This document shows positions 6,636-40,837 of a stretch of DNA of 40,837 bases, in pieces. The notes under the pieces are model-generated. The model worked only from the letters and a program-made list of their open reading frames with translations. It made no database searches and was not told the DNA's origin. Position 1 is the first letter of the stretch. The number at the start of each line of letters is the position of its first letter. A program made the translations under genes and the position numbers. The stretch comes from a virus: positions 1-40,837 of IMG/VR virus record IMGVR_UViG_3300001202_000004. The stretch is one strand, 5' to 3'.

Positions 6636-7544
6636 CTACTTTTTTACCCTCTTGGCGAGTAATTCCTCTGGGAGCTCCGATTTGTAACCCCATGCCTCAA
6701 ACCATTCTACAATAATATTTTTTTGATTTTCCTCCTCTTTTAGACGATATGCGTCCTCCGATACTCTTTTAAAGAGCGTCTCTGGAGCTGCTTTAATAAG
6801 CTTGACTTCTTTAGGTTTTAACACTCTCTCCCAGTGTTTAAGAGCGGCGGGCGTTTGGCACGTTGTTAAAAACCAAGCGTTGTATTTTGAGTTAGACGGC
6901 CTATTAGATAAGGAGTTTAGTATATCGTTTCTATGGCGTAACGCTTTCCTTATCTGTGACCAATCCCCGCCGCGCTCCTGTCCAAATAAACGAGATTTTA
7001 TTCTCTCCATATCAATGATAATGTCATTTTCTGATTTATGTTTATTGCAGTAAGTCGTCTTCCCGGAGGCCGCTGGGCCATATAAAATAGTTAAATGAAT
7101 AGCGCTAGGCCTTAGCTCTGGAAAGAACAACTCTTTAGGCGGGGCAAGCTCGATAACTTCCTCCTCGATAGGCCAGCCGTCGTCGTCAAAACGCATCTTC
7201 CGACGTCCTGTTTTTTCGAATGACTGTTGATCCCTGTCATGGTGTAGTTTGCAAAGGCTATCGAGGTTATTTGGATCGACGAATAGATCCCAATCCCCCT
7301 TATGAGCGACGGTATGATTAGCTACTGTAGCGGCGACGACATAACCTTCCGCCTTGCACATATGGCAGAGAGGCTCCTTCTGTAGCTGGCGCTTACGGAG
7401 CCGCTTCCAGATCCCTAATCCGTACCATTTAATATACACACTACGATCAACCATTAGCGGCGGCGCGTATGGCGGAGGATCATAGGGATAGATATTATAA
7501 AAGCCGCTGTCCCGGCGTTTAGAGAGAGAGCTGTTAACCACCAT
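6636..7544 (-). CDS. HNH endonuclease fused to a P-loop kinase/ATPase-like domain
   Basis: 302 aa. The N-terminal half has CHMCKAEG...ANHTVAHKGDWDLFVDPNNLDSLCKLHHD (HNH). The C-terminal half has the Walker A motif ILYGPAASGKTT followed by IIIDMERI, resembling AAA_33 or polynucleotide-kinase-type folds. Confidence 0.7.
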   Translation of the reverse strand: MVVNSSLSKRRDSGFYNIYPYDPPPYAPPLMVDRSVYIKWYGLGIWKRLRKRQLQKEPLCHMCKAEGYVVAATVANHTVAHKGDWDLFVDPNNLDSLCKLHHDRDQQSFEKTGRRKMRFDDDGWPIEEEVIELAPPKELFFPELRPSAIHLTILYGPAASGKTTYCNKHKSENDIIIDMERIKSRLFGQERGGDWSQIRKALRHRNDILNSLSNRPSNSKYNAWFLTTCQTPAALKHWERVLKPKEVKLIKAAPETLFKRVSEDAYRLKEEENQKNIIVEWFEAWGYKSELPEELLAKRVKK

Positions 7545-10713: not shown

Positions 10714-12192
10714 TTAAAATGGGAGATCCTCGTCGAAGCCTTGGCCGTCCTCGTCGGAGAGCTCCGTTATAATATCGTAAGGGAGGAAGCAATTAAGCAT
10801 AGTCGAGCCCAGCGGGCCGCCTTTATTCTTCGCTACTATTACCTCCATTTTGTTTTTACTGTCCGCGATATCCTGATAATAGGTTTTCTTTTTTTCCGCG
10901 TTAGAAGGCTCTCCGCTGTCTATCAAGACTTTCTCCTTCCGGGTTAATAATAGGACTATATCCGCCGCGTCCTCGATCCCGGAGGAGCCTTTTAAATCTT
11001 GGATCTGGGGACGGCGGCCTTCTCGCTCGTCCGTCTTTCGCGATAACTGAGCGAGGAGCATTACGTGAATATCCATCTTTTTCGCCAGAGCTTTTAATTC
11101 CCGGCATATCTCCGCATAGTATTTAACGTCGTTCCTTGGATCCTCGCAATCCTTTCCGCTCATTAGGTTAAGATAGTCGACGACGATCATATCGAGGCCG
11201 CCTAATTGCTTCTCCATAGCGCGAGATCTCTTAGCTATCTGGGAGTGAGTTAGCCCAGAGCTCTCGTCTAAGATGATCCCCTCCGGAATATTCTCCGTCG
11301 CCGCGAGGAGCTTAGCTCTTCTAGCCGGGCCTACGTCGTGTTTAGCAATTTTGTTATATGTTATCCCAAACGTCTTCCCGGCGGCGGCGGAAGCGGCTCT
11401 TTCTCCTAATTCAAGCGCGGGCATTTCTTGAGTGAAGAAGCCAACTTTACCGGGGAGGCTCTCGTCGTCCAGAGAAGGGATCCCCTTAGCGATATTACGA
11501 GCGATATTCGTCGCGAGGGACGTTTTACCCATAGAAGGCCGCCCAGCGACGACGGAGAGTTTACCACGGCCAAAACCAGAGAGCTTTGCATCAAGCGCGG
11601 CGTAAGAGCTTGGAAGCCCCATAGGCCTCTCTAAGCCGATTACAGAGATAGAATTATAAGACGCCTCTTTTAGTGTTATAAAGGACGTATCGCTGGGGAG
11701 GACGCCCTCGATAGCGGAGAGCTCCTTTCTAGCGTTAGATATGATATCCGCCGCCATATCGTCGCTGTCTCGATCTCTGGAGGCCTTAAGGATATCTTGG
11801 GCAAACCTTATGCACTCTCGCCGCCCCGCCATTTCAACGACAAGACGAGCATAATCCGGCGCTGTAGATAATGGAGGACAGTTATCGAGAAGGAGAGCGA
11901 GATATTCCACGCCGCCTATATCTAATAGTCGCTCGTCTCTGGCGTAACGATTTTTTAAATATATAGCATCCGCCAAGGCCGCGCGGCGTGAGCGGTTATA
12001 AATCACGTTACAAATATCGACATGAATAGGGTTGTAAAAATGCTTAGGCTGGACGAGATCTCTTATCTCTGGATAGACTTCCAGATTATTAGCTAGGAGA
12101 GCTCCTAAGACGGCTTGTTCCGCCTCTTGTGACTGGGGGACGTTTTTAAGATCCTCGTCGCCTATAGGGATATATTCGTCGCCGTAACTCAT
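10714..12192 (-). CDS. dnaB: Replicative DNA helicase DnaB
   Basis: The N-terminus has PQSQEAEQAVLGALL, the Walker A motif is GRPSMGKTSLATNIA and the Walker B motif is MIVVDYLNLM. The preferred start at 12192 forms an ATGA overlap with the upstream stop. The ORF-track start is 12228. Confidence 0.9.
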   Translation of the reverse strand: MSYGDEYIPIGDEDLKNVPQSQEAEQAVLGALLANNLEVYPEIRDLVQPKHFYNPIHVDICNVIYNRSRRAALADAIYLKNRYARDERLLDIGGVEYLALLLDNCPPLSTAPDYARLVVEMAGRRECIRFAQDILKASRDRDSDDMAADIISNARKELSAIEGVLPSDTSFITLKEASYNSISVIGLERPMGLPSSYAALDAKLSGFGRGKLSVVAGRPSMGKTSLATNIARNIAKGIPSLDDESLPGKVGFFTQEMPALELGERAASAAAGKTFGITYNKIAKHDVGPARRAKLLAATENIPEGIILDESSGLTHSQIAKRSRAMEKQLGGLDMIVVDYLNLMSGKDCEDPRNDVKYYAEICRELKALAKKMDIHVMLLAQLSRKTDEREGRRPQIQDLKGSSGIEDAADIVLLLTRKEKVLIDSGEPSNAEKKKTYYQDIADSKNKMEVIVAKNKGGPLGSTMLNCFLPYDIITELSDEDGQGFDEDLPF

Positions 12193-12605
12193 CTTGTAAA
12201 CTCTCTGACCTTGGAAATAAAATTCCATGCGTGGTCGTTAGTCATTTTATTAATCGCCCGGCGGCTCCGGCGATTATGAGATATGTCGAGAGATCTCTCT
12301 ACGAGCTCCTCGTCGAGATCCAGTAAAGCGTCGAGGATCTTACTTAAGGTATCTTGTTTTTCTTCGCCGTAATACAAGATCTCATAACTCTTCTTCTTTC
12401 CGGGGAGGCGGCGGAGATATCCAGCCTCCTCCAGAGCGACGACGGCGTTATGAATACTGGACTTCGATCCTATCCCTAGCACGTCCTTAATTACGTCATA
12501 CGACGGCGCGGAGCCGCTCTCTGTTATGTTGTCCCGGATAACCTCGAAGACGCTTTGCTGTTGTGGAGAGATTGAAAACACCATATCAACCGCGCTCCCG
12601 TTCAT
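12189..12605 (-). CDS. LexA-type winged-helix DNA-binding-domain protein
   Basis: 138 aa. ISPQQQSVFEVIRDNITESGSAPSYDVIKDVLGIGSKSSIHNAVVALEEAGYLRR parallels the LexA N-terminal domain. There is no S24 peptidase domain. Confidence 0.6.
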   Translation of the reverse strand: MNGSAVDMVFSISPQQQSVFEVIRDNITESGSAPSYDVIKDVLGIGSKSSIHNAVVALEEAGYLRRLPGKKKSYEILYYGEEKQDTLSKILDALLDLDEELVERSLDISHNRRSRRAINKMTNDHAWNFISKVREFTR

Positions 12606-13312: not shown

Positions 13313-13906
13313 TCATGGCTCCAGTTTAAATTCTTTGTTCGTCCATGGGAAGACACTGTCCGCCCAAGCTTTAACCTCCAGAGGATCCACGGCCTTAACG
13401 CGAGCGCGAAGTCCTTCTCTTTCGCTGTAAATCTTCGCGCCTGTCCCAAATACGACTTGAACGTCGTCCGTATATGCGAGCGTATTAAGTGCGTCTTTAA
13501 GGAGCTTCTCGATATTGTCTTTATCCGGCTTCTTAAGATAGGCCACTTCCCCCATTACCTTCGCCATGCGATTATGCTTAGGCTGGAGAGGCGGCTCGTA
13601 ATATGCGCACCAATCGACGGAAACAGCTCCCCGGAGTATCTGGAAGTCTCTCGCGGCGGAGATTTGCGTCTCTGTCTCTGATTTTATCATGTCCTCGAAT
13701 TCTTTAGTCGTAGATCCGTAAGCCATAGGACGGAGGGATCTTAGCGAGTAATGTTTTAACGACTTAAATCCTGTCTCGCTCTCAGGATCTGGGACTTCGT
13801 GTATATGGAAAGGGACGTCCTTATTCCTAGGAACTGTCCGGAAGAGCGCTCGCCCCTTCCCTTTAAAGGCATAGGGAAACCATAGATCTAAGACAGGCTT
13901 CCCCAT
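13313..13906 (-). CDS. rusA: RusA-family Holliday junction resolvase
   Basis: PDKDNIEKLLKDALNTLAYTDDVQVV matches the RusA D-x-D-N..K...DAL...DD.qV catalytic segment. At 197 aa it has a longer N-terminus than E. coli RusA. Confidence 0.7.
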   Translation of the reverse strand: MGKPVLDLWFPYAFKGKGRALFRTVPRNKDVPFHIHEVPDPESETGFKSLKHYSLRSLRPMAYGSTTKEFEDMIKSETETQISAARDFQILRGAVSVDWCAYYEPPLQPKHNRMAKVMGEVAYLKKPDKDNIEKLLKDALNTLAYTDDVQVVFGTGAKIYSEREGLRARVKAVDPLEVKAWADSVFPWTNKEFKLEP

Positions 13907-14939: not shown

Positions 14940-15263
14940 ATGGATAAAATATTAAAAGTTAATCCGCCGGGAAGAGAGATAGGCGTCGCGGATATGGTGT
15001 TTTCTGAGGCATTTAAAGACGTAGTCACTATTGAGGTTCAAAATTTAGTAAAGGAGCGGCGTGAGAGTTTATGGGCTGGAGATAATGCGGAGAGCTTCCA
15101 GTCTGGCAGTCTGGAAACTTATATAGGCCTAACTCTAGCAGTACGCGGATATCTCAAAACCGTGAAAGACACTAAAGAAACGCCGGAAGATATCGCGTCC
15201 GTCCTAACTGATAGCTTACAGGAAATAATATATATAGAAGCCCGGAAGGAGGGGCGGTTATAA
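14940..15263 (+). CDS. Hypothetical protein
   Basis: 107-aa ORF with RBS taggaggcc upstream. It is the first gene of the rightward block. Confidence 0.55.
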   Translation: MDKILKVNPPGREIGVADMVFSEAFKDVVTIEVQNLVKERRESLWAGDNAESFQSGSLETYIGLTLAVRGYLKTVKDTKETPEDIASVLTDSLQEIIYIEARKEGRL

Positions 15264-16276
15264 TGGGTAAAATATTAAAGATAACAGATCTCGCTATAGA
15301 CGAGAAAGTCACTAAGCCGGGCCTCTACAGGATGCCGCTCCCTCTATATCATAGTGATTGCGCTTGGAAGGAGAGCGTCTCTTCCGGGGACGCTTTCAAA
15401 CTCGCGGAGAATGGCGAGGAATACTGGGAGGACAGTTATTACAATCCCAAAAACCAAGACGATAAGAGCCGCGTTAAGCTCCATAAGGACGCCTTCCGAT
15501 TTGGAACCGCCGCCCATACTAAAATCCTTGAGCCTCAAAAATGGATCGAAGATTATATTCCCCGGCCTTCTAAATGGAAGACGTGGAGGAGCGAGGACGC
15601 TAAACACTGGCGCTGGGTTCAAGAATATCAAAAAGGCTTAACCACTATCGCTATGAGCGACGTCGTCCATATCGACGCAATGGCGGAACGGATCCTTAAA
15701 CACTCTCTCGCTAGTACGCTGTTTGAAGTAGGCGAGCCGGAGATCTCTCTCTTTATGGAAACCGCGCTAGGCGTTGTTTTAAAGGCTCGTCCGGATATGC
15801 TTCCGATCTACGAGGATAAGAAAACGAATAAAGTCCGGATCGCGGATAACATATTTAGCGACTATAAGACCTGCTACGATAACTCGCCGGAGGCTTGCAC
15901 TAAAGCGATAGAGAATAACGGTTATGACGTGAAGCTTGCGAATTGTGCTTTTGTCGCCTGTCGCTTGTTTAACTGGAACTTTGGAGATCTAGACTTCGTC
16001 CTCGTCTTCCAGAAGACACTCCCTCCTTACGGAATAACAGTTATGGAGCTCGGTAACGATCACATGCACAAACTCGCGGCCTTGGCTCTACATGGCGCTA
16101 ACCAATTCGCAAAAGGACGCCAAGTAATGGGCGGCGAATGGGACGGCTACACGGACGAGATCGTTAAATATTATCCGCCCGGATATTCGAGGCGGACGAT
16201 AGAGAGGCTCGATAAGCGGATTAACTCCGGAGAGCTTCCTAACTTAGATGGTAAAATGAGGATCGTTACACCATGA
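15263..16276 (+). CDS. PD-(D/E)XK exonuclease, RecE/DUF3799-like
   Basis: FRFGTAAHTKILEPQKW, EISLF...LKARPDMLP, SDYKTC and NNGYDVKLANCAF match the G.a.H..iLEp / E / D / D-x-K / Y..Q motif series of exonuclease VIII-type nucleases. Confidence 0.7.
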   Translation: MGKILKITDLAIDEKVTKPGLYRMPLPLYHSDCAWKESVSSGDAFKLAENGEEYWEDSYYNPKNQDDKSRVKLHKDAFRFGTAAHTKILEPQKWIEDYIPRPSKWKTWRSEDAKHWRWVQEYQKGLTTIAMSDVVHIDAMAERILKHSLASTLFEVGEPEISLFMETALGVVLKARPDMLPIYEDKKTNKVRIADNIFSDYKTCYDNSPEACTKAIENNGYDVKLANCAFVACRLFNWNFGDLDFVLVFQKTLPPYGITVMELGNDHMHKLAALALHGANQFAKGRQVMGGEWDGYTDEIVKYYPPGYSRRTIERLDKRINSGELPNLDGKMRIVTP

Positions 16277-17685
16277 CAGAGAAAAACAACACGACAGTAG
16301 CAGTAAGGAAACCCGCGCAGACTATAGGAGCTGTCGAGGAGAGCGCGGATCTATGGGAAACCGCGCAGAGGCTATTCCAATCTAAAATAGCTCCTAAGTC
16401 TATCAAGAGCGCGAAGTCTCTTCTCTATGTCCTTATGATGGGGCAAGATATGGGCTGGACGGCGACCCAGTCCCTCTCGAATATCACGGTTATAAACGAT
16501 AAGCCCTCCGTCTACGCGGACGGATTAACGGCGATCCTACATAGAGCCGGGCATAAGCTCGAAGAGAAATTCGAAGGATCTGTCGAAGGCGGAGACTACA
16601 AAGTCACTTGCACCATAACGCGGAAAGATACTGGGAGCGTGATAACGAGAACCTTTTCTGTCGATATGGCGAAGAGAGCCGGGCTCTGGGAAACGGAGCC
16701 AATGGTTACGCGCCGCAAAAAAAGAGAGCACGGAGGAGGAACCTATGAAACGGCTAACGATAGCCCTTGGTATAAATACCCGGAGCGCATGATCTGGAGG
16801 AGAGCTATAAGCTGGGCAGTCCGGGACGCTTGCTCCGATGAAATGAACGGATTGCAAGTCGTCGAAGAAATGGAGGATCACGCTATGACGATCCGACTGG
16901 ATGCGCTAGACGCGGAAGCTCCTTCTCGACTAGAGCAAAAGCTCGCCAAGCATAACGCCCCTGAAACGCCCATAGAGAGCGACGAGGACGAAGTGAGCGA
17001 AGACATAGAAGACGCCGTTATCGTGGATAGCGCCAGCGGAGACGTAGAGGAGAGCGAGAAAAAGCTCGTTCTCTCCGGAAACCCTCTTAACTTCGACGAG
17101 GATCTCGCGGCCTTTATTGATTTCTATGGGACGACAGAGCCCGGACTAAAGCCGGAGGAGCCGGAGGTTATCTATTTCCGTAAGGTTACATATCGCGTCT
17201 ATCGAGACGTCATAATTAACCCGGATCCGGATCTCCCGGACGGGAAGCAGGAGAGGCCAGCTCTTAACGACGAAGGTGTCTTTTGCGTATTTACTGGAGA
17301 CGTGCTAAACAAGATCGCGCCTCTTGATAAAGAGAATTCTCCCGGAGACGTTGCTTCCCACAAGGCAGACGTCGAGGAGAAGAAGGCGGCGACAGAGGAC
17401 GATACCCCCTCCGTCGCCGCTACTAAGAAAAAAACAAAACCTAAAACCAAACGTAAAGCGAAAAAGAATGACACTCCGTTACTAACGCCAGACGCTAAGG
17501 ACTGGATAGAGTTTATAAACGAGGACGGCGTCCCAGCGGAGGATCTTCTGACACAATGGGAGAGGGAGAAAGTTACGGCATGGTATGAGAAGCTAACAGA
17601 GCCGCAACGCCGCCATTTAACTAAATTGTTTAACGAGAGGATCGAGGCGCTTCACAATCAGAGAAGAGCGGAGGAGAGCGGATAA
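16273..17685 (+). CDS. recT: RecT-like single-strand annealing protein with a long charged C-terminal extension
   Basis: Residues of about 30-200 (LMMGQDMGWTATQSLSNITVINDKPSVYADG...SPWYKYPERMIWRRAISWAVRD) follow the RecT-family pattern. It is coupled to the exonuclease gene. About 270 extra acidic and basic residues follow. Confidence 0.6.
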   Translation: MTEKNNTTVAVRKPAQTIGAVEESADLWETAQRLFQSKIAPKSIKSAKSLLYVLMMGQDMGWTATQSLSNITVINDKPSVYADGLTAILHRAGHKLEEKFEGSVEGGDYKVTCTITRKDTGSVITRTFSVDMAKRAGLWETEPMVTRRKKREHGGGTYETANDSPWYKYPERMIWRRAISWAVRDACSDEMNGLQVVEEMEDHAMTIRLDALDAEAPSRLEQKLAKHNAPETPIESDEDEVSEDIEDAVIVDSASGDVEESEKKLVLSGNPLNFDEDLAAFIDFYGTTEPGLKPEEPEVIYFRKVTYRVYRDVIINPDPDLPDGKQERPALNDEGVFCVFTGDVLNKIAPLDKENSPGDVASHKADVEEKKAATEDDTPSVAATKKKTKPKTKRKAKKNDTPLLTPDAKDWIEFINEDGVPAEDLLTQWEREKVTAWYEKLTEPQRRHLTKLFNERIEALHNQRRAEESG

Positions 17686-18991: not shown

Positions 18992-19324
18992 ATGGCGGAT
19001 CGTACCAAACCCTCCGAATATAAAGCGGCTCTCTCTGGAGCGGAGATAACGAAAGTCCGTCTAGGCGTTAACGATAGCATATACGGGCCGGGATATCTGG
19101 AAGTTACTAAGACAGTCTTTAAAGCTGGGGGATCCTTTATTTATCCAGCCTTCTACGCGGACAATGCTAACACCTATCGAGACGATAAGACTGGCGAGCG
19201 GAAGAAGTTTAGCGAGGGCGTCACGGCTCCCAAGGGAGGCTTTAAGGACGGATCCCACGCTATCCGGGAGATAAGGCAGAAGCTCGATCTCAAATTTAAA
19301 CAGAGCAAATTTAACAAGATCTAA
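18992..19324 (+). CDS. Hypothetical protein upstream of the Top6A-like gene
   Basis: 110-aa ORF. No motif recognised. Confidence 0.5.
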   Translation: MADRTKPSEYKAALSGAEITKVRLGVNDSIYGPGYLEVTKTVFKAGGSFIYPAFYADNANTYRDDKTGERKKFSEGVTAPKGGFKDGSHAIREIRQKLDLKFKQSKFNKI

Positions 19325-19334
19325 GGAGAAAACA

Positions 19335-20264
19335 ATGAAAGAGCAATTCGATAACTGGACACCTAATCCAGAAAATCGATCTATTATAGACGCCGCTAAC
19401 AATGCGCTAGACGAGCTTCGCGGCTTCGAACCTACACTTAGATCTGTTTATTATAATCTCGTTACCTATAAAATTATCGAGAATAAACAGACTGAATATA
19501 AAAGGCTGGGAGATATCTTAACTAAAGCTCGTAACGCCGGGCTCGTCGACTGGCGAGCCTTCGAGGATAAAGGCCGCGTCCTCGACAGGCCTTACTTTCA
19601 AGAGGAACCCTCTGTCGTATTGAGCGACATTCACACCCTTATTAACTTCGATATGTGGGCGAGACAGGACGTTTATGTCGAGGTATGGGTTGAAAAACAA
19701 GCGCAAGAGGGCGTTGTCCGGCGAGCGTGTGACGAGTTTCGCGTCCCTTGGCTATCATGTAAAGGATATCTCTCCGCGACAGCGGCCTACAATGCTGGGA
19801 AACGATTTAGACGAGCGGCCAATTATGATAATAAACGCCCTGTCCTTATACACCTAGGAGATCATGATCCTAGCGGTATAGATATGACGCGAGATAATGG
19901 AGCCCGGATAGAGAAATACGGAGAGCTCTACGATATAGAGGTTAACAGGATTGCTCTTAATATGGATCAAGTCGAGAAGCATAATCTCCCGCCGGATCCC
20001 GCAAAACTTTCCGACAGTAGAGCGAAGGAATATATAGCAGATCACGGAGAGCGGAGCTGGGAACTAGACGCGCTTAAACCCCAGACCCTACTCCCTATAA
20101 TTAAAAACGCTATTAAAGGATATATAGATCCGGAGATCTGGGAACAAACAAAACAGGAAGAGCGGGAGATCCGTAACGCTCTCCGCTGGATAGGCGAAAA
20201 CCCGGACGAAGCTATCGAGCTAGTCGAGCGAGAGATCGCTCCAGAATATGACGACGAGGAGTAG
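19335..20264 (+). CDS. Stand-alone Spo11/topoisomerase VI subunit A-like protein (5Y-CAP winged helix plus Toprim)
   Basis: LRSVYYNLV (R36, Y39/Y40), VWVEKQ (E120) and LGDHDPSG (D176/D178) occur in the canonical order and spacing. CKGYLSATAAYNAGKRF and NRIALNMDQVEKHNL also parallel Top6A segments. Confidence 0.65.
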   Translation: MKEQFDNWTPNPENRSIIDAANNALDELRGFEPTLRSVYYNLVTYKIIENKQTEYKRLGDILTKARNAGLVDWRAFEDKGRVLDRPYFQEEPSVVLSDIHTLINFDMWARQDVYVEVWVEKQAQEGVVRRACDEFRVPWLSCKGYLSATAAYNAGKRFRRAANYDNKRPVLIHLGDHDPSGIDMTRDNGARIEKYGELYDIEVNRIALNMDQVEKHNLPPDPAKLSDSRAKEYIADHGERSWELDALKPQTLLPIIKNAIKGYIDPEIWEQTKQEEREIRNALRWIGENPDEAIELVEREIAPEYDDEE

Positions 20265-20270
20265 TAAGCC

Positions 20271-20765
20271 ATGCGTAACAGTCATTTAAAAACCGAATTA
20301 AAACACGCGAGGGAGAAGGCGTTACACGAAGGCCTCCGTCCATTTATATCCTTCTTCACGCTCTGTCAGATTATGGAAAGAGACACGTATCTTCTTAACT
20401 TAATAAAGAGAGCCGGGATCGCACTAAAGGACGAGAGGCGTAGGAGACGAGAGGCGGAGGAGATTATCTTAGATCTACAAAATCAGCTCCGCAAATACGA
20501 GGAGAATACAGGCGAGGCCGCATTTTACTCCGTATCTATAGGTTATCGAATAAGCGCGGTGGAAGATGAGGCTCTCCAGAGGGATCTCGCCGAAATGCTT
20601 AACAAAGATAACCAAAAAATGAGGAAGGCCGGGAATAGATTAGCAATCGCCGCGACGCGCGTTATCGACACTTACGACGGGATCCATAGGCTCTCTCTAG
20701 AATTAAGAGAATGGTTTACCGTCATAGCGGAGGAAGGGAATAGGGATCGTTTTAAGCCATTATGA
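20271..20765 (+). CDS. Ead/Ea22-like protein
   Basis: The C-terminal AGNRLAIAATRVIDTYDGIHRLSLELREWFTVIAEEG resembles the conserved Ead/Ea22 C-terminal block, preceded by a coiled coil. Confidence 0.4.
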   Translation: MRNSHLKTELKHAREKALHEGLRPFISFFTLCQIMERDTYLLNLIKRAGIALKDERRRRREAEEIILDLQNQLRKYEENTGEAAFYSVSIGYRISAVEDEALQRDLAEMLNKDNQKMRKAGNRLAIAATRVIDTYDGIHRLSLELREWFTVIAEEGNRDRFKPL

Positions 20766-21147: not shown

Positions 21148-21579
21148 CTAATCAAAAGGATTAATAGTTAAGGAGGGATCTCCCTCCTTTATCGCCTTAT
21201 CGAAGGCGTCCCGGATTTCCTCGACAGATCCGTCCCAGTCCTCCCGGTTATCTATATTCGTCTTCTCGTTACCCTTAACCGTATCGGAGAGCGTGTCGAA
21301 GTCGTTTTTAAGGATAGGCCAATGGGCTCCGTAAGCGGCGTCTTGCTCCACTACGTCGCGAATAGTGTTAAATGTCCCGGAGGAAGTGTCGTTAGGGCTG
21401 GACGTAGCCAATAGCGCCGGAGGTACTACCTGACAAACCGGAGGAGCTGGGAGCTTGTCCAGCAAGCGACGGGCTTCCGAAAATCGCCTTATATCTACTA
21501 CGGGCGTCGTCGCGCATCCTGTCACTAAGAAAAGCGGGGTCATTAATACAAGTGTTAGGAATAGTCTCTGCATCGTCAA
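21148..21579 (-). CDS. Outer-membrane spanin (o-spanin) lipoprotein
   Basis: The signal peptide has the lipobox LFLVTG-C. There is a Pro-rich segment LPAPPVCQVVPP. It begins inside the i-spanin gene in another frame, with a 188-nt overlap. Confidence 0.7.
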   Translation of the reverse strand: MTMQRLFLTLVLMTPLFLVTGCATTPVVDIRRFSEARRLLDKLPAPPVCQVVPPALLATSSPNDTSSGTFNTIRDVVEQDAAYGAHWPILKNDFDTLSDTVKGNEKTNIDNREDWDGSVEEIRDAFDKAIKEGDPSLTINPFD

Positions 21580-21925
21580 AACCTTTTTTATAGCCTTCGC
21601 TCTTTCCTTCGAGCTTGCCCTGAATATATGCCGCCTCCCGGACGGCTTCTATATTAGCCGCGCTCTGTCCAGATACGCGGATCTCTATCTTCTCTTTAAC
21701 CGCTGTCGCGATATCGTCAATCTTCCCGGAGATAATATTGGATTTCTCGTCGAGCTTTATTCCGGCTCGCTTCTCCTCCTCGATACGCTCGTTATATCCA
21801 ATCTCCTGTTGATAACCGTCGTACATGGCCTTAGCTAACAGGACAGTCCCTACGGACAAGACTGATAAGATAGCGTAAATAATTATTTTTTCGCCTGTTA
21901 CCATTTTACGCAAAGCCTCCCGCAT
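21392..21925 (-). CDS. Inner-membrane spanin (i-spanin)
   Basis: An N-terminal TM helix IIIYAILSVLSVGTVLLA is followed by charged helical regions. It lies directly downstream of the endolysin. Confidence 0.65.
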   Translation of the reverse strand: MREALRKMVTGEKIIIYAILSVLSVGTVLLAKAMYDGYQQEIGYNERIEEEKRAGIKLDEKSNIISGKIDDIATAVKEKIEIRVSGQSAANIEAVREAAYIQGKLEGKSEGYKKGFDDAETIPNTCINDPAFLSDRMRDDARSRYKAIFGSPSLAGQAPSSSGLSGSTSGAIGYVQP

Positions 21926-22676
21926 CCTCTAGCCGCTCTATGAGTTTCGATATTTTCATATATTTAAAAGTGCTCTTTAATACAAGTCCGTTTGGATCTG
22001 CGAGGCCTACGGGGATCGTCTTAGCGGAGTAAACTCCATACTTAGCGAGAGCGACCTCCTTATCTCTCCGGCTCCAGAGGACGCGGTTAGCTCTCCAGAT
22101 ATCAATAGCGCCAGCAATGTCCCCGGATCGAGCGAGCTTCCGCGTCATTGGCTTGTTGATATCTCCAGCATTGTAAGCAAGGGAGACGAGAGCGTCGAAT
22201 TCGTGGGGTTTAAGCTTCGCGGCCTTGGCGGCTCCGCCCATAAGGTTATAGACTATTCGCTCGTATTTAGGGAGGATCTTCTGAAATAGATCTATAGATC
22301 TCTCTAGAGTGATCCGGCCTTTAAATGTGTTAGGATTTATGTCCGCTCCAGCGGCGGCGGTTACACCGGGGCCGATTGTCCAGATCCCTTCCGTGTCGAG
22401 ATATCTATTAAGGATAACGGCCTCTTTAGCGATTATCTCACAACACCCCCGGAGGGAGGTTCTAGGCTTACTCTTGTTCATAACGGGGATATCTTTCCGG
22501 ACAGGCGTTATAATTCGTTGCTGTCTCTGATTTGCGCCGCCCAGATCACGCGGGGGAAGTTTTTGTTCCGGATATGCCTTAACAGGCTCTCGCGGCTCCT
22601 GAGCGATTACAGGAGAGGGGTTATCGAGCTCCCGCCCTAACAGGCTTCGAAGTAGGAGCTCGATAAACTTTATCAC
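21906..22676 (-). CDS. Endolysin, GH24 (T4-type) lysozyme with an N-terminal extension
   Basis: IAKEAVILNRYLDTEGIWTIGPGVT carries the E...D...T catalytic triad context. HEFDALVSLAYNAG is also present. Confidence 0.85.
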   Translation of the reverse strand: MIKFIELLLRSLLGRELDNPSPVIAQEPREPVKAYPEQKLPPRDLGGANQRQQRIITPVRKDIPVMNKSKPRTSLRGCCEIIAKEAVILNRYLDTEGIWTIGPGVTAAAGADINPNTFKGRITLERSIDLFQKILPKYERIVYNLMGGAAKAAKLKPHEFDALVSLAYNAGDINKPMTRKLARSGDIAGAIDIWRANRVLWSRRDKEVALAKYGVYSAKTIPVGLADPNGLVLKSTFKYMKISKLIERLEDAGGFA

Positions 22677-39421: not shown

Positions 39422-40102
39422 TTAAGTGATTAACGCTCGAATATCCTTAAGGATCTCCGCCGCGTCATTGTTTGGCTTGTCTGGATCCCCCAGACCTTTC
39501 TTGAGGTTTACACGGATAGCCCGCTCCGCCTCTGAGTTAGTGAGATTACAATTCTCTTTAAGAATTATCTCCCACTCTCTCTCGCTCAACCGCTCCCCGG
39601 TTGCAAGCTTTGTGCGAATATCAGTTAGCGATTTAACCGCCGTCATATTCGCGTAAGGATCCATCCCGATAGGGACGAAACTTATCTCTTTCAAATCTAA
39701 TTCTTTGATCTTACGGATCCCGCGCTCTTTAGTAGCGCCGCCGGGCGGGACGATATATCCGATAGACATAGATCTCGCTAGGCCTTTTTTCATTAGCGTA
39801 TAGGCTTTTTTAGAAAGCTCCGACATAGTCGGGACGACTGTCCCTGCAACCCAGAGGCCTTCTTTTCTTTCTTCTAAGTCCGTGATCCCGCCGATAACGT
39901 CCTCCTCCCTGTGTCGCCAGAGGAAAGGGATTATCCGGTTTTGCTCCCGGCGCTCTTTAATCGTTTTACTGTACGCGCCGGGGAGGATCATATCGCCGCC
40001 GTGATCGACCTTATTAAAGATCGAGGCGATACCTTCGAAAGCTCCTTCGTCGGAGACTTCCTTAAACTGTAAGTCGAAAACAGAGTTATTATTCGTCGAC
40101 AT
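39422..40102 (-). CDS. Prohead protease (HK97 family)
   Basis: The start at 40102 (MSTNNNSVFDL) is preceded by AGGAGGAG. FEGIASIFNKVDHGGDMILPGAY and SIGY are typical of S78-family prohead proteases. Confidence 0.8.
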   Translation of the reverse strand: MSTNNNSVFDLQFKEVSDEGAFEGIASIFNKVDHGGDMILPGAYSKTIKERREQNRIIPFLWRHREEDVIGGITDLEERKEGLWVAGTVVPTMSELSKKAYTLMKKGLARSMSIGYIVPPGGATKERGIRKIKELDLKEISFVPIGMDPYANMTAVKSLTDIRTKLATGERLSEREWEIILKENCNLTNSEAERAIRVNLKKGLGDPDKPNNDAAEILKDIRALIT

Positions 40103-40837
40103 TATCTTCTCCTCCTGTGATACTGCCGTCCGCCTCCGCGACAGGAATATTTTGCATTTGTACCCTTGCAACGCCGCCGCCGTCAATAGCTGGACGATCT
40201 TCTAAATCTCTGACCTCGTTTATAGTCATAAGTCCGTTACGTGTCATTTTCTCGTAGAAGTTAGCGCGAGCGACGGTATCTCCCCGGAGGAGATCCTCGA
40301 TATTAAATTTAATATACATCCCACGGCTTCGCTCTTGTGGAGTTAGGAGCTGTTTCATTAAAGCTTTTTCTATCCGCTTAACGCGGCGGCGGAGAGTGAA
40401 TTTAATAAAGGCTAAGACCTGTTGCTCCAGTCCAGTCCCCCACGAAGTAGACTTCTCCGTGTGTCCGATCATAAACGGAGGGACGCCAAAGATCCGCGCG
40501 ATCTCTAGGACAGAGAAAGAGCGGCTCTCTAACATTTGGGCGTCCTTGGCAGAGATCGATAGCTGTGACCAAGAGACGCCATTATCTAGAATAACCGGGA
40601 CGCCGTCGTTAATTGCTCCCTGATATTCTGAGCGGAGGATCGTCTTAAGCTTGTTCCGTTGTGCTTTGTCCAGAGGCTTATCTACGGATAAGACACCAGA
40701 AGGCCTCATTCCCTGAGCCCATTGTCTCCCGGCGGCCATATCCGCGTTATGGGCGGATCTAAACACTCCCGCCGCCGCCTGTAGGGGAGACTGTCCTCCC
40801 AGAGCCGTAGGAAAGGCTCCGCGAATATGAAGCATTT
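40089..40837 (-). CDS. Portal protein, C-terminal part (joins 542..1 across the junction)
   Basis: It is in frame with the hand-translated N-terminal part. The HK97-type portal motif GVPPFMIGH...STSWGTGLEQQ is present. Confidence 0.9.
   Translation of the reverse strand, partial: MLHIRGAFPTALGGQSPLQAAAGVFRSAHNADMAAGRQWAQGMRPSGVLSVDKPLDKAQRNKLKTILRSEYQGAINDGVPVILDNGVSWSQLSISAKDAQMLESRSFSVLEIARIFGVPPFMIGHTEKSTSWGTGLEQQVLAFIKFTLRRRVKRIEKALMKQLLTPQERSRGMYIKFNIEDLLRGDTVARANFYEKMTRNGLMTINEVRDLEDRPAIDGGGVARVQMQNIPVAEADGSITGGEDNVDE
40789..40837. repeat. Second copy of the 49-bp terminal overlap
   Basis: Exact copy of bases 1-49. It looks like an assembly-overlap signature, not a biological terminal repeat. 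Confidence 0.95.

Follow-up and report, generated by a model that had tools for sequence, protein, structure and literature searches.

What use might a phage make of a solitary gene whose product resembles Top6A, the DNA-cutting A subunit of topoisomerase VI (Topo VI), and Spo11, when no B subunit accompanies it? Such a gene, encoding 309 aa, lies at 19335..20264 on the forward strand of IMG/VR virus record IMGVR_UViG_3300001202_000004, the 40,837 nt of which were analysed as one stretch and are referred to here as the window. The product is almost certainly a Topo mini-A (Mini-A), a stand-alone short relative of the Topo VI/Spo11 DNA-cutting subunit, and it is a fresh addition to a very large viral family, first described in 2019. 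Our full explanation, which joins this identity to a mechanism of gated, tyrosine-dependent cleavage and to a role in replication of phage DNA, is given a probability of roughly 0.4.

Mini-A was defined by Takahashi, Da Cunha, Gadelle, Forterre et al. (NAR Genom Bioinform 2019/2020; PMC7671362) as virus-encoded, of ~300 aa, with the residues R-x-x-Y/F-Y, E and DxDxxG and a C-terminal xWELDAL-type T2BI box, by which Mini-A is told apart from Topo VI and Topo VIII (PMC7671362). We make the identification because every one of these published features is present in the window protein and because it is homologous to a named Mini-A. Its length falls under the ~400 aa of Top6A, and its relatives cluster at ~300 aa; the residues are R36-S-V-Y39-Y40, E120, D176-H-D178-P-S-G181 and S241-WELDAL. 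The ORF (open reading frame) and all of the motifs quoted in the original prediction were read from the sequence at the residues given there, and two further segments that it quoted lie at residue 142 (CKGY...) and residue 204 (NRIALN...); the diagnostic S-WELDAL (residues 241-247) was absent from it. The gene also stands alone in its genome. The first 49 nt of the window recur exactly at its end (1-49 = 40789-40837), so that the window is a circularly closed, complete phage genome of ~40.79 kb, and no HATPase/GHKL (Top6B) domain occurs in the 29 ORFs scanned with Pfam, which comprise nearly all those of at least 156 aa; for these ORFs, the earlier statement that the genome has no B subunit holds.

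The named relative is the Mini-A of Pseudomonas phage NP1, listed as an exemplar in Figure 2 of PMC7671362, with which the window protein shares 40.7% identity over 86% of its length (tblastn, E = 6e-52). PHROG 6247, 'DNA topoisomerase', matches the protein over its full length (E = 9e-89), and no family match was obtained in Pfam, NCBIfam or PADLOC. Homologues are encoded by 84 deposited phages (tblastn) under the annotations 'DNA topoisomerase', 'DNA topoisomerase VI', 'DNA binding protein' or hypothetical. The window protein is a divergent member, with at most 47.5% identity to any deposited phage and at most 59-60% in a large database, and shows no essential difference from the stand-alone, virus-encoded proteins of the first description (PMC7671362). 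The motifs, the homology to NP1 and a structural search in which only Top6A passed E < 1e-3 thus bear out the earlier proposal that the protein is a Topo VI-A/Spo11-like 'Mini-A' standing alone, lacking a B subunit and having no established role. The rarity that the proposal implied is not borne out. When 1.84 billion cluster representatives (50% identity clusters) were searched exhaustively with a profile, 11,826 Mini-A representatives were recovered at E 1e-3, 7,428 at 1e-10 and 2,469 at 1e-30, and the family is already called 'DNA topoisomerase' in PHROGs and GenBank.

The structural comparison with Top6A and Spo11 that the original prediction had proposed was made with an AlphaFold2 (AF2) model of the whole protein, built with 46 homologues (predicted local distance difference test score, pLDDT, 91.8; predicted template-modelling score, pTM, 0.84). 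Three Foldseek matches in the PDB had E < 1e-3, all of them DNA-bound Methanosarcina mazei Topo VI A chains (E = 6.4e-5 to 4e-4, probability 1.00, ~318 aligned columns), with a template-modelling score (TM) of only 0.33. Residues 103-265 were therefore modelled alone (pLDDT 92.4) to test whether domain orientation caused this low value, and the Toprim half returned the same three chains as its sole matches at E < 1e-3 (E = 2.9e-5, TM 0.58, root-mean-square deviation 5.4 A, 178 columns). The strand/helix topology of a Toprim domain is visible in the AF2 models. As modelled, then, the fold is a winged helix followed by a Toprim domain and is superposable on solved Top6A. The viral structure library BFVD gave no significant match, only weak ones to Toprim primases.

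Searches with phmmer, Pfam and NCBIfam provided no direct sequence route from the window protein to Top6A, and it had no match to PF04406 (TP6A_N) or PF21180 (TOP6A-Spo11_Toprim) at E up to 10. Mini-A is linked to Top6A only by the fold search and the register of the motifs. For the latter, a Top6A alignment was seeded from a yeast Spo11 sequence, which matched PDB chain 8urq_A (E = 1.8e-265), and an M. mazei Top6A fragment from the output of the same search was used to collect annotated Top6A proteins for a profile. Global-mode hhalign gave no meaningful alignment of the profiles; an extended alignment placed four blocks in register, namely (Mini-A/Top6A) TLRQLYY/TLREMYY, VWVEK/IAIET, HLGDHDP/VFTDGDP and RIALNMDQ..PPPNP/GITPSDI..LPTD. 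In M. mazei Top6A numbering (PMC13040014), R36 corresponds to R102, Y40 to Y106, E120 to E202, and D176/D178 to D254/D256. The predicted nucleophile is Y40 rather than Y39, since it is Y40 that the alignment pairs with M. mazei Y106. As hhalign leaves WELDAL unaligned, E243 is equated with the M. mazei clasp glutamate E342 on the basis of the published T2BI alignment (PMC7671362).

Top6A (M. mazei 9O0G/2Q2E, M. jannaschii 1D3Y) is the best and sole significant structural match of the window protein, and the two share the order of winged helix and Toprim domain, the Arg/Tyr pair, the glutamate, the DxD motif and the T2BI glutamate. The window protein differs in being ~60-90 aa shorter, lacking the Top6B-binding N-terminal segment of the 5Y-CAP (35 residues precede R36, compared with ~100 before R102 in M. 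mazei Top6A), in having no Top6B/GHKL partner that could be found, in falling below the Pfam TP6A_N and Toprim thresholds and in carrying WELDAL where Top6A has K-K-x-E-Q-Q-A. Absence of the 5Y-CAP's B-binding N-terminal region and of a B subunit has been reported for all Mini-A (PMC7671362). Spo11 has the same catalytic core and uses its chemistry for breaks rather than strand passage; it differs in being eukaryotic, in having a full 5Y-CAP and in working with Top6BL/Rec102-Rec104-Ski8 and many regulators, and neither sequence searches nor Foldseek matched it directly to the window protein. Topo VIII, a plasmid-borne type IIB enzyme, has a fused or adjacent GHKL B-like moiety and an RVELNAM box, and both are absent from the window protein. 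The Toprim nucleases JetD/MksG (Wadjet) and GajA (Gabija) are, in likeness, dimeric cutters that act on bent DNA. These enzymes cut hydrolytically and are not known to use a catalytic tyrosine; they belong to multi-protein defence systems, and the window protein has no PADLOC or Foldseek match to them.

Conservation of the predicted catalytic residues was assessed in 150 sequences, the window protein and 149 cluster representatives 34-49% identical to it. All 150 retain R36, also Y40, E120, D176 and D178, which the original prediction had named for such a check, together with P179, G181, G144 and K224, and E243 is present in 148. The relative P0365 carries a 360-aa Hint/LAGLIDADG intein between the W and the C-E-K of its Toprim 'VWVEK' motif, one residue before E120. 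Inteins are characteristically inserted in catalytic motifs. We argue strongly from these sequences that selection acts on Mini-A catalysis, because the catalytic residues are invariant and the intein sits at an active-site motif. As a separate observation, one of the 150 representatives naturally carries Gln at the E243 column, the same change as E342Q, which renders M. mazei Topo VI hyper-cleaving (PMC13040014).

Homologues also sit on 34 plasmids, and the family is consequently not strictly viral, contrary to its first description. Of these plasmids, 26 are from Streptomyces; their proteins are 26-30% identical and keep RQVYY, the Toprim glutamate and DLDPSG, with VQAEAL replacing WELDAL. 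One example is pNO33 (Table 1), and a further plasmid homologue occurs on Vibrio campbellii pLMB96 (L088). Extra regions occur in a few relatives (P0332, P0347, P0331 and P0246/P0249/P0256/P0287): zinc-finger clusters of the DnaJ type (CxxCxGxG) at the C-terminus, a DUF1643 domain at the N-terminus, or C-terminal extensions of ~150 aa that have in common an acidic 'DYEP(K/E)DP..EE..FGD' motif at their end. Such fusion partners were considered as clues to function and set aside, the single DUF1643 fusion and the DnaJ-type zinc-finger tails being uninformative and only the intein useful, as a marker of the active site. The window protein itself ends in a short acidic tail, PEYDDEE, and about one-third of its relatives have an acidic tail.

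Our working hypothesis for the mechanism draws on Topo VI/Spo11 enzymology and on Topo VI-DNA structures of 2026 (PMC13040014). Mini-A would be expressed from the rightward early operon alongside a PDDEXK exonuclease, RecT and an HNH-like nuclease, and two copies would pair into a dimer whose active sites are hybrid. Held in position by R36, Y40 would attack the DNA backbone, assisted by Mg2+ held by E120, D176 and D178 of the Toprim domain of the partner chain, and the product would be a 5'-phosphotyrosyl link between protein and DNA. By analogy with these enzymes, we consider it somewhat more probable than an even chance that Mini-A cleaves by such Tyr/Mg chemistry. A lone A-type subunit can suffice for cutting, since mouse SPO11 alone is reported to make double-strand breaks in vitro (PMC11922746). 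In Top6A the catalytic Arg and Tyr are contact partners of the T2BI glutamate (PMC7671362), and the function of this clasp has been described (PMC13040014); contact between R36 and E243 of WELDAL may likewise form an 'electrostatic clasp' that restrains cleavage as in Topo VI. Because of this predicted restraint, cutting would not be constitutive but gated, probably through bending or supercoiling of the DNA. For want of an ATPase gate, strand passage driven by ATP would be impossible. Replicating phage DNA would in this way acquire regulated and perhaps reversible breaks or nicks, which would start or feed recombination-dependent or rolling-circle replication by way of the neighbouring exonuclease, RecT and RusA. 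This role, of regulated breaks or nicks that seed replication, is put forward tentatively and at odds well short of even; we favour it because an exonuclease and RecT are encoded in the same operon and because replication and recombination genes dominate the neighbourhoods of Mini-A elsewhere. The roles offered in the original prediction, namely double-strand breaks for recombination, attack on the host and resolution of concatemers, are speculative.

The rightward operon begins at ~14940 and comprises the exonuclease, RecT, small ORFs, an HNH/EndoVII-like gene, the 110-aa ORF, Mini-A, and ORFs of 164 and 72 aa (Table 1). The RecE-like exonuclease, RecT and RusA expected close to the gene were all located. 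The RecT-like annealase is unusually long (470 aa), with a core at about residues 50-260 followed by an acidic/lysine-rich C-terminal extension of ~200 aa. A scan of 14.3-21.3 kb for promoters and terminators gave counts not above shuffled expectation. The 164-aa gene had been labelled Ead/Ea22-like; it has no match to Ead/Ea22 or to any other family, and its weak matches to JetC/SMC (E ~2e-3) were judged to be coiled-coil noise.

Context was examined in 80 IMG/VR loci and in further phage, metagenome and plasmid loci. The two flanking genes, proposed earlier as candidate partners, do not recur beside Mini-A, and they were rejected both as partners and as a 'Mini-B': when all ORFs of 86 Mini-A loci were searched with phmmer, the 110-aa protein had no homologue and the 164-aa protein a single partial match, not adjoining Mini-A, and neither matches anything in 50,697 phage genomes (tblastn). 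Conservation of the gene neighbourhood, put forward earlier as a check, yielded no recurrent partner. Clustering of neighbours by blastp produced no family in more than 8 of 82 Mini-A loci, and a PHROG census of the 256 nearest same-strand neighbour proteins of at least 140 aa in 82 loci contained no recurrent partner and no GHKL protein. The neighbours in this census are DNA primases, helicases, polymerases, RecT/RecE/exonuclease VIII/Sak4, RusA, thymidylate synthase and integrases. The PaMx25 copy is flanked by a ligase on one side and by a RecA-like ATPase with a RecB exonuclease on the other, and the flanking genes in RcRudolph encode a Cas4 exonuclease and a DNA polymerase. P0002, which at 59% identity is the closest relative, is encoded on an integrase-bearing island (L084:5158-19037) in the order P4-type integrase, HTH_91, AAA_25, Mini-A and a 1,945-aa LPD38 'polyvalent' protein; a search for the island boundaries revealed neither a tRNA nor att repeats. 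Another close relative, P0004, adjoins a DUF3854/DUF5906 primase-helicase. In phages and other mobile elements, then, Mini-A is a module of one gene that sits within DNA-metabolism regions and has no fixed partner.

Several results weigh against the explanation that we prefer. Of the Top6A structures, Foldseek recovered only DNA-bound E342Q chains of M. mazei, and apo Top6A and Spo11 were absent from its top 50. A Mini-A hidden Markov model recovered no Top6A among PDB sequences; matches of the 46 relatives to PF04406 (four) and PF21180 (one) lay below the gathering score; and hhalign of Mini-A against Top6A was non-significant at two profile depths, with P = 0.004 to 0.018 and a probability of 2.5-8.7%, from shallow profiles (effective number of sequences, Neff, ~2.2 to 3.5), and placed nothing of WELDAL against the KKAEQQA box of Top6A. 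With regard to role, recombination genes are a minority of Mini-A neighbours, so that the link to RecT and the exonuclease here may be incidental, and the phage has no obvious need for another initiator, given that its genome already encodes DnaB and an HTH_36 initiator-like protein. Finally, no biochemical or genetic characterization of a Mini-A was found in the searchable literature, up to a December 2024 review that still describes the topic as unexplored, and for this reason cleavage, dimerization and role are all inferred. Two papers that link 'topoisomerase' with Queuovirinae (retron Eco2; daunorubicin) proved unrelated to Mini-A.

One alternative is that Mini-A is a genuine ATP-independent topoisomerase, the dimer cleaving and religating DNA to relax supercoils or unlink replicated phage genomes, perhaps together with a non-canonical 'Mini-B' of host or phage origin. 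Type II strand passage normally needs an ATP-operated gate, and the ORFs tested yielded neither a GHKL protein nor an ATPase gate of another kind. The placement of Mini-A in replication modules beside polymerases, helicases and primases would suit such an enzyme, and it is the default reading in PMC7671362; yet the 5Y-CAP's Top6B-binding N-terminal region is missing (PMC7671362), and no neighbour family occurs in more than 8 of the 82 loci. We regard this alternative as unlikely.

A second alternative, which we rate as quite unlikely, makes Mini-A a replication-initiator nickase that would nick one strand at a specific origin, remain 5'-linked and prime rolling-circle replication in the manner of an HUH Rep protein. 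A role as rolling-circle initiator was proposed for Asgard skuldviruses by Medvedeva et al., these viruses encoding Mini-A and no other replication protein (bioRxiv 10.1101/2021.07.29.453957). The islands and elements described above lend it some colour, in that an AAA_25 protein is the sole replication-type neighbour on the P0002 island and P0004 adjoins a primase-helicase; moreover, with Mg2+, Top6(A-E342Q) nicks more readily than it cuts both strands (PMC13040014). Against it, the phage of the window has its own DnaB helicase and HTH_36 initiator-like protein, many Mini-A phages carry full replisomes, and no origin-like repeat or hairpin turned up beside the gene, although no search for one was made.

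It is improbable, in our estimation, that Mini-A is instead a weapon or counter-weapon that breaks the DNA of the host or of competitors or disturbs Wadjet/JetD or Gabija, or that it is a hydrolytic Toprim nuclease in which the tyrosine is not the nucleophile. Genes of phage early operons often serve takeover or anti-defence, and Mini-A is also carried by plasmids and islands. Distant Toprim dimers do serve as defence nucleases (PMC13040014), but Foldseek returned Top6A and not JetD, MksG or GajA, PADLOC gave no match, including none to JetD or GajA, and the neighbours are phage replication and recombination genes. Pure hydrolysis would need neither R36 nor Y40, and both are invariant in the 150 sequences; a covalent single-turnover enzyme would, in our view, also be a poor degrader of DNA. 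A catalytically silent DNA-binding or architectural protein that merely keeps the Topo VI-A fold is very improbable, for although Topo VI A is not known to be active unless its B subunit is present and some GenBank records say 'DNA binding protein', the catalytic residues are strictly invariant across ~150 diverse clusters and an intein is inserted at the active-site motif of P0365.

The virus that carries the gene is a novel HK97-type siphovirus of ~40.8 kb. Pfam and PHROG scans identified TerS (Terminase_4), TerL, an HK97-type capsid, an S78 prohead protease, long tail proteins and a lysozyme, as well as DnaB, the HTH_36 initiator-like protein and a LexA-type DNA-binding protein; no integrase showed up in the ORFs scanned. 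TerL and the capsid are at most 56% identical to those of any deposited phage, most of the closest matches being phages of Alphaproteobacteria, and since megablast of 10 kb of the window against phages gave no match the phage is new at the nucleotide level. The LexA-type protein (138 aa; 12189-12605, reverse strand) is encoded by a gene that overlaps the start of dnaB, and a 302-aa protein at 6636-7544 (reverse strand) weakly matches a P-loop kinase-like family (AAA_33, E = 2e-4). A lysis cassette at 21148-22676 (reverse strand) is convergent with the Mini-A operon. The ORF at 40089-40835 (reverse strand) extends as far as the junction, and the linearization point probably interrupts it.

Table 1. 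Positions of the Mini-A gene, its motifs, neighbouring genes and other features (window positions unless a locus is named)
Feature	Position	Strand	Basis or remark
Topo mini-A gene, 309 aa; truncated winged-helix 5Y-CAP, then Toprim	19335..20264	+	ORF, PHROG 6247, AF2, Foldseek
Shine-Dalgarno AGGAG, 6 nt before ATG	19324..19328	+	Sequence; directly after stop codon of preceding gene
5Y-CAP motif LRSVYYNL, residues 35-42	19437..19460	+	R36 = 19440-19442; predicted catalytic Y40 = 19452-19454
Toprim strand 1 motif VWVEK, residues 117-121	19683..19697	+	Predicted metal-binding E120 = 19692-19694
Toprim acidic motif LGDHDPSG, residues 174-181	19854..19877	+	D176, D178
T2BI box WELDAL, residues 242-247, preceded by S241	20058..20075	+	E243, predicted counterpart of Top6A clasp glutamate
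RusA	13313-13906	-	
PDDEXK (DUF3799, RecE-like) exonuclease	15263-16276	+	Pfam DUF3799, E = 8.5e-9
RecT-like annealase	16273-17685	+	PHROG 561, E = 1.2e-20
HNH/endonuclease VII-like, 206 aa	18206..18826	+	PHROG 338/8660, E ~2e-6
Upstream ORF, 110 aa, same operon	18992..19324	+	No family match
Downstream ORF, 164 aa, same operon	20271..20765	+	Noise-level matches only
o-spanin-like ORF	21148-21579	-	LFLVTGC lipobox; overlaps i-spanin-like ORF
i-spanin-like ORF	21392-21925	-	N-terminal transmembrane segment
Lysozyme	21906-22676	-	PF00959
Plasmid Mini-A homologue, Streptomyces noursei pNO33	L089:7029-7862		

It is tempting to speculate, though we think the whole of the proposition rather unlikely, that Mini-A is a self-contained, ATP-independent, Spo11-like maker of protein-linked breaks or nicks that launches recombination-dependent or rolling-circle replication in phages and small integrative elements, with the R36-E243 clasp as its safety catch, and that it is the viral counterpart, possibly the precursor, of the Topo VI core and of the meiotic double-strand break machinery. 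Mini-A is among the largest phage protein families with an obvious catalytic core yet no known function and no Pfam model, and it represents the Topo VI/Spo11 DNA-cleavage module in its minimal natural form. The copy described here does not settle that function; it is a clean example in an operon with an exonuclease and RecT, and cultured carriers (NP1/PaMx25, Chi-like Salmonella phages, Listeria LWP01 and Rhodobacter RcRudolph) offer a better experimental entry than the window locus. Knowledge of what Mini-A cuts, and of how it is kept in check in the absence of a B subunit, would bear on phage replication and recombination, on how type IIB topoisomerases evolved and on the control of Spo11-type breaks.

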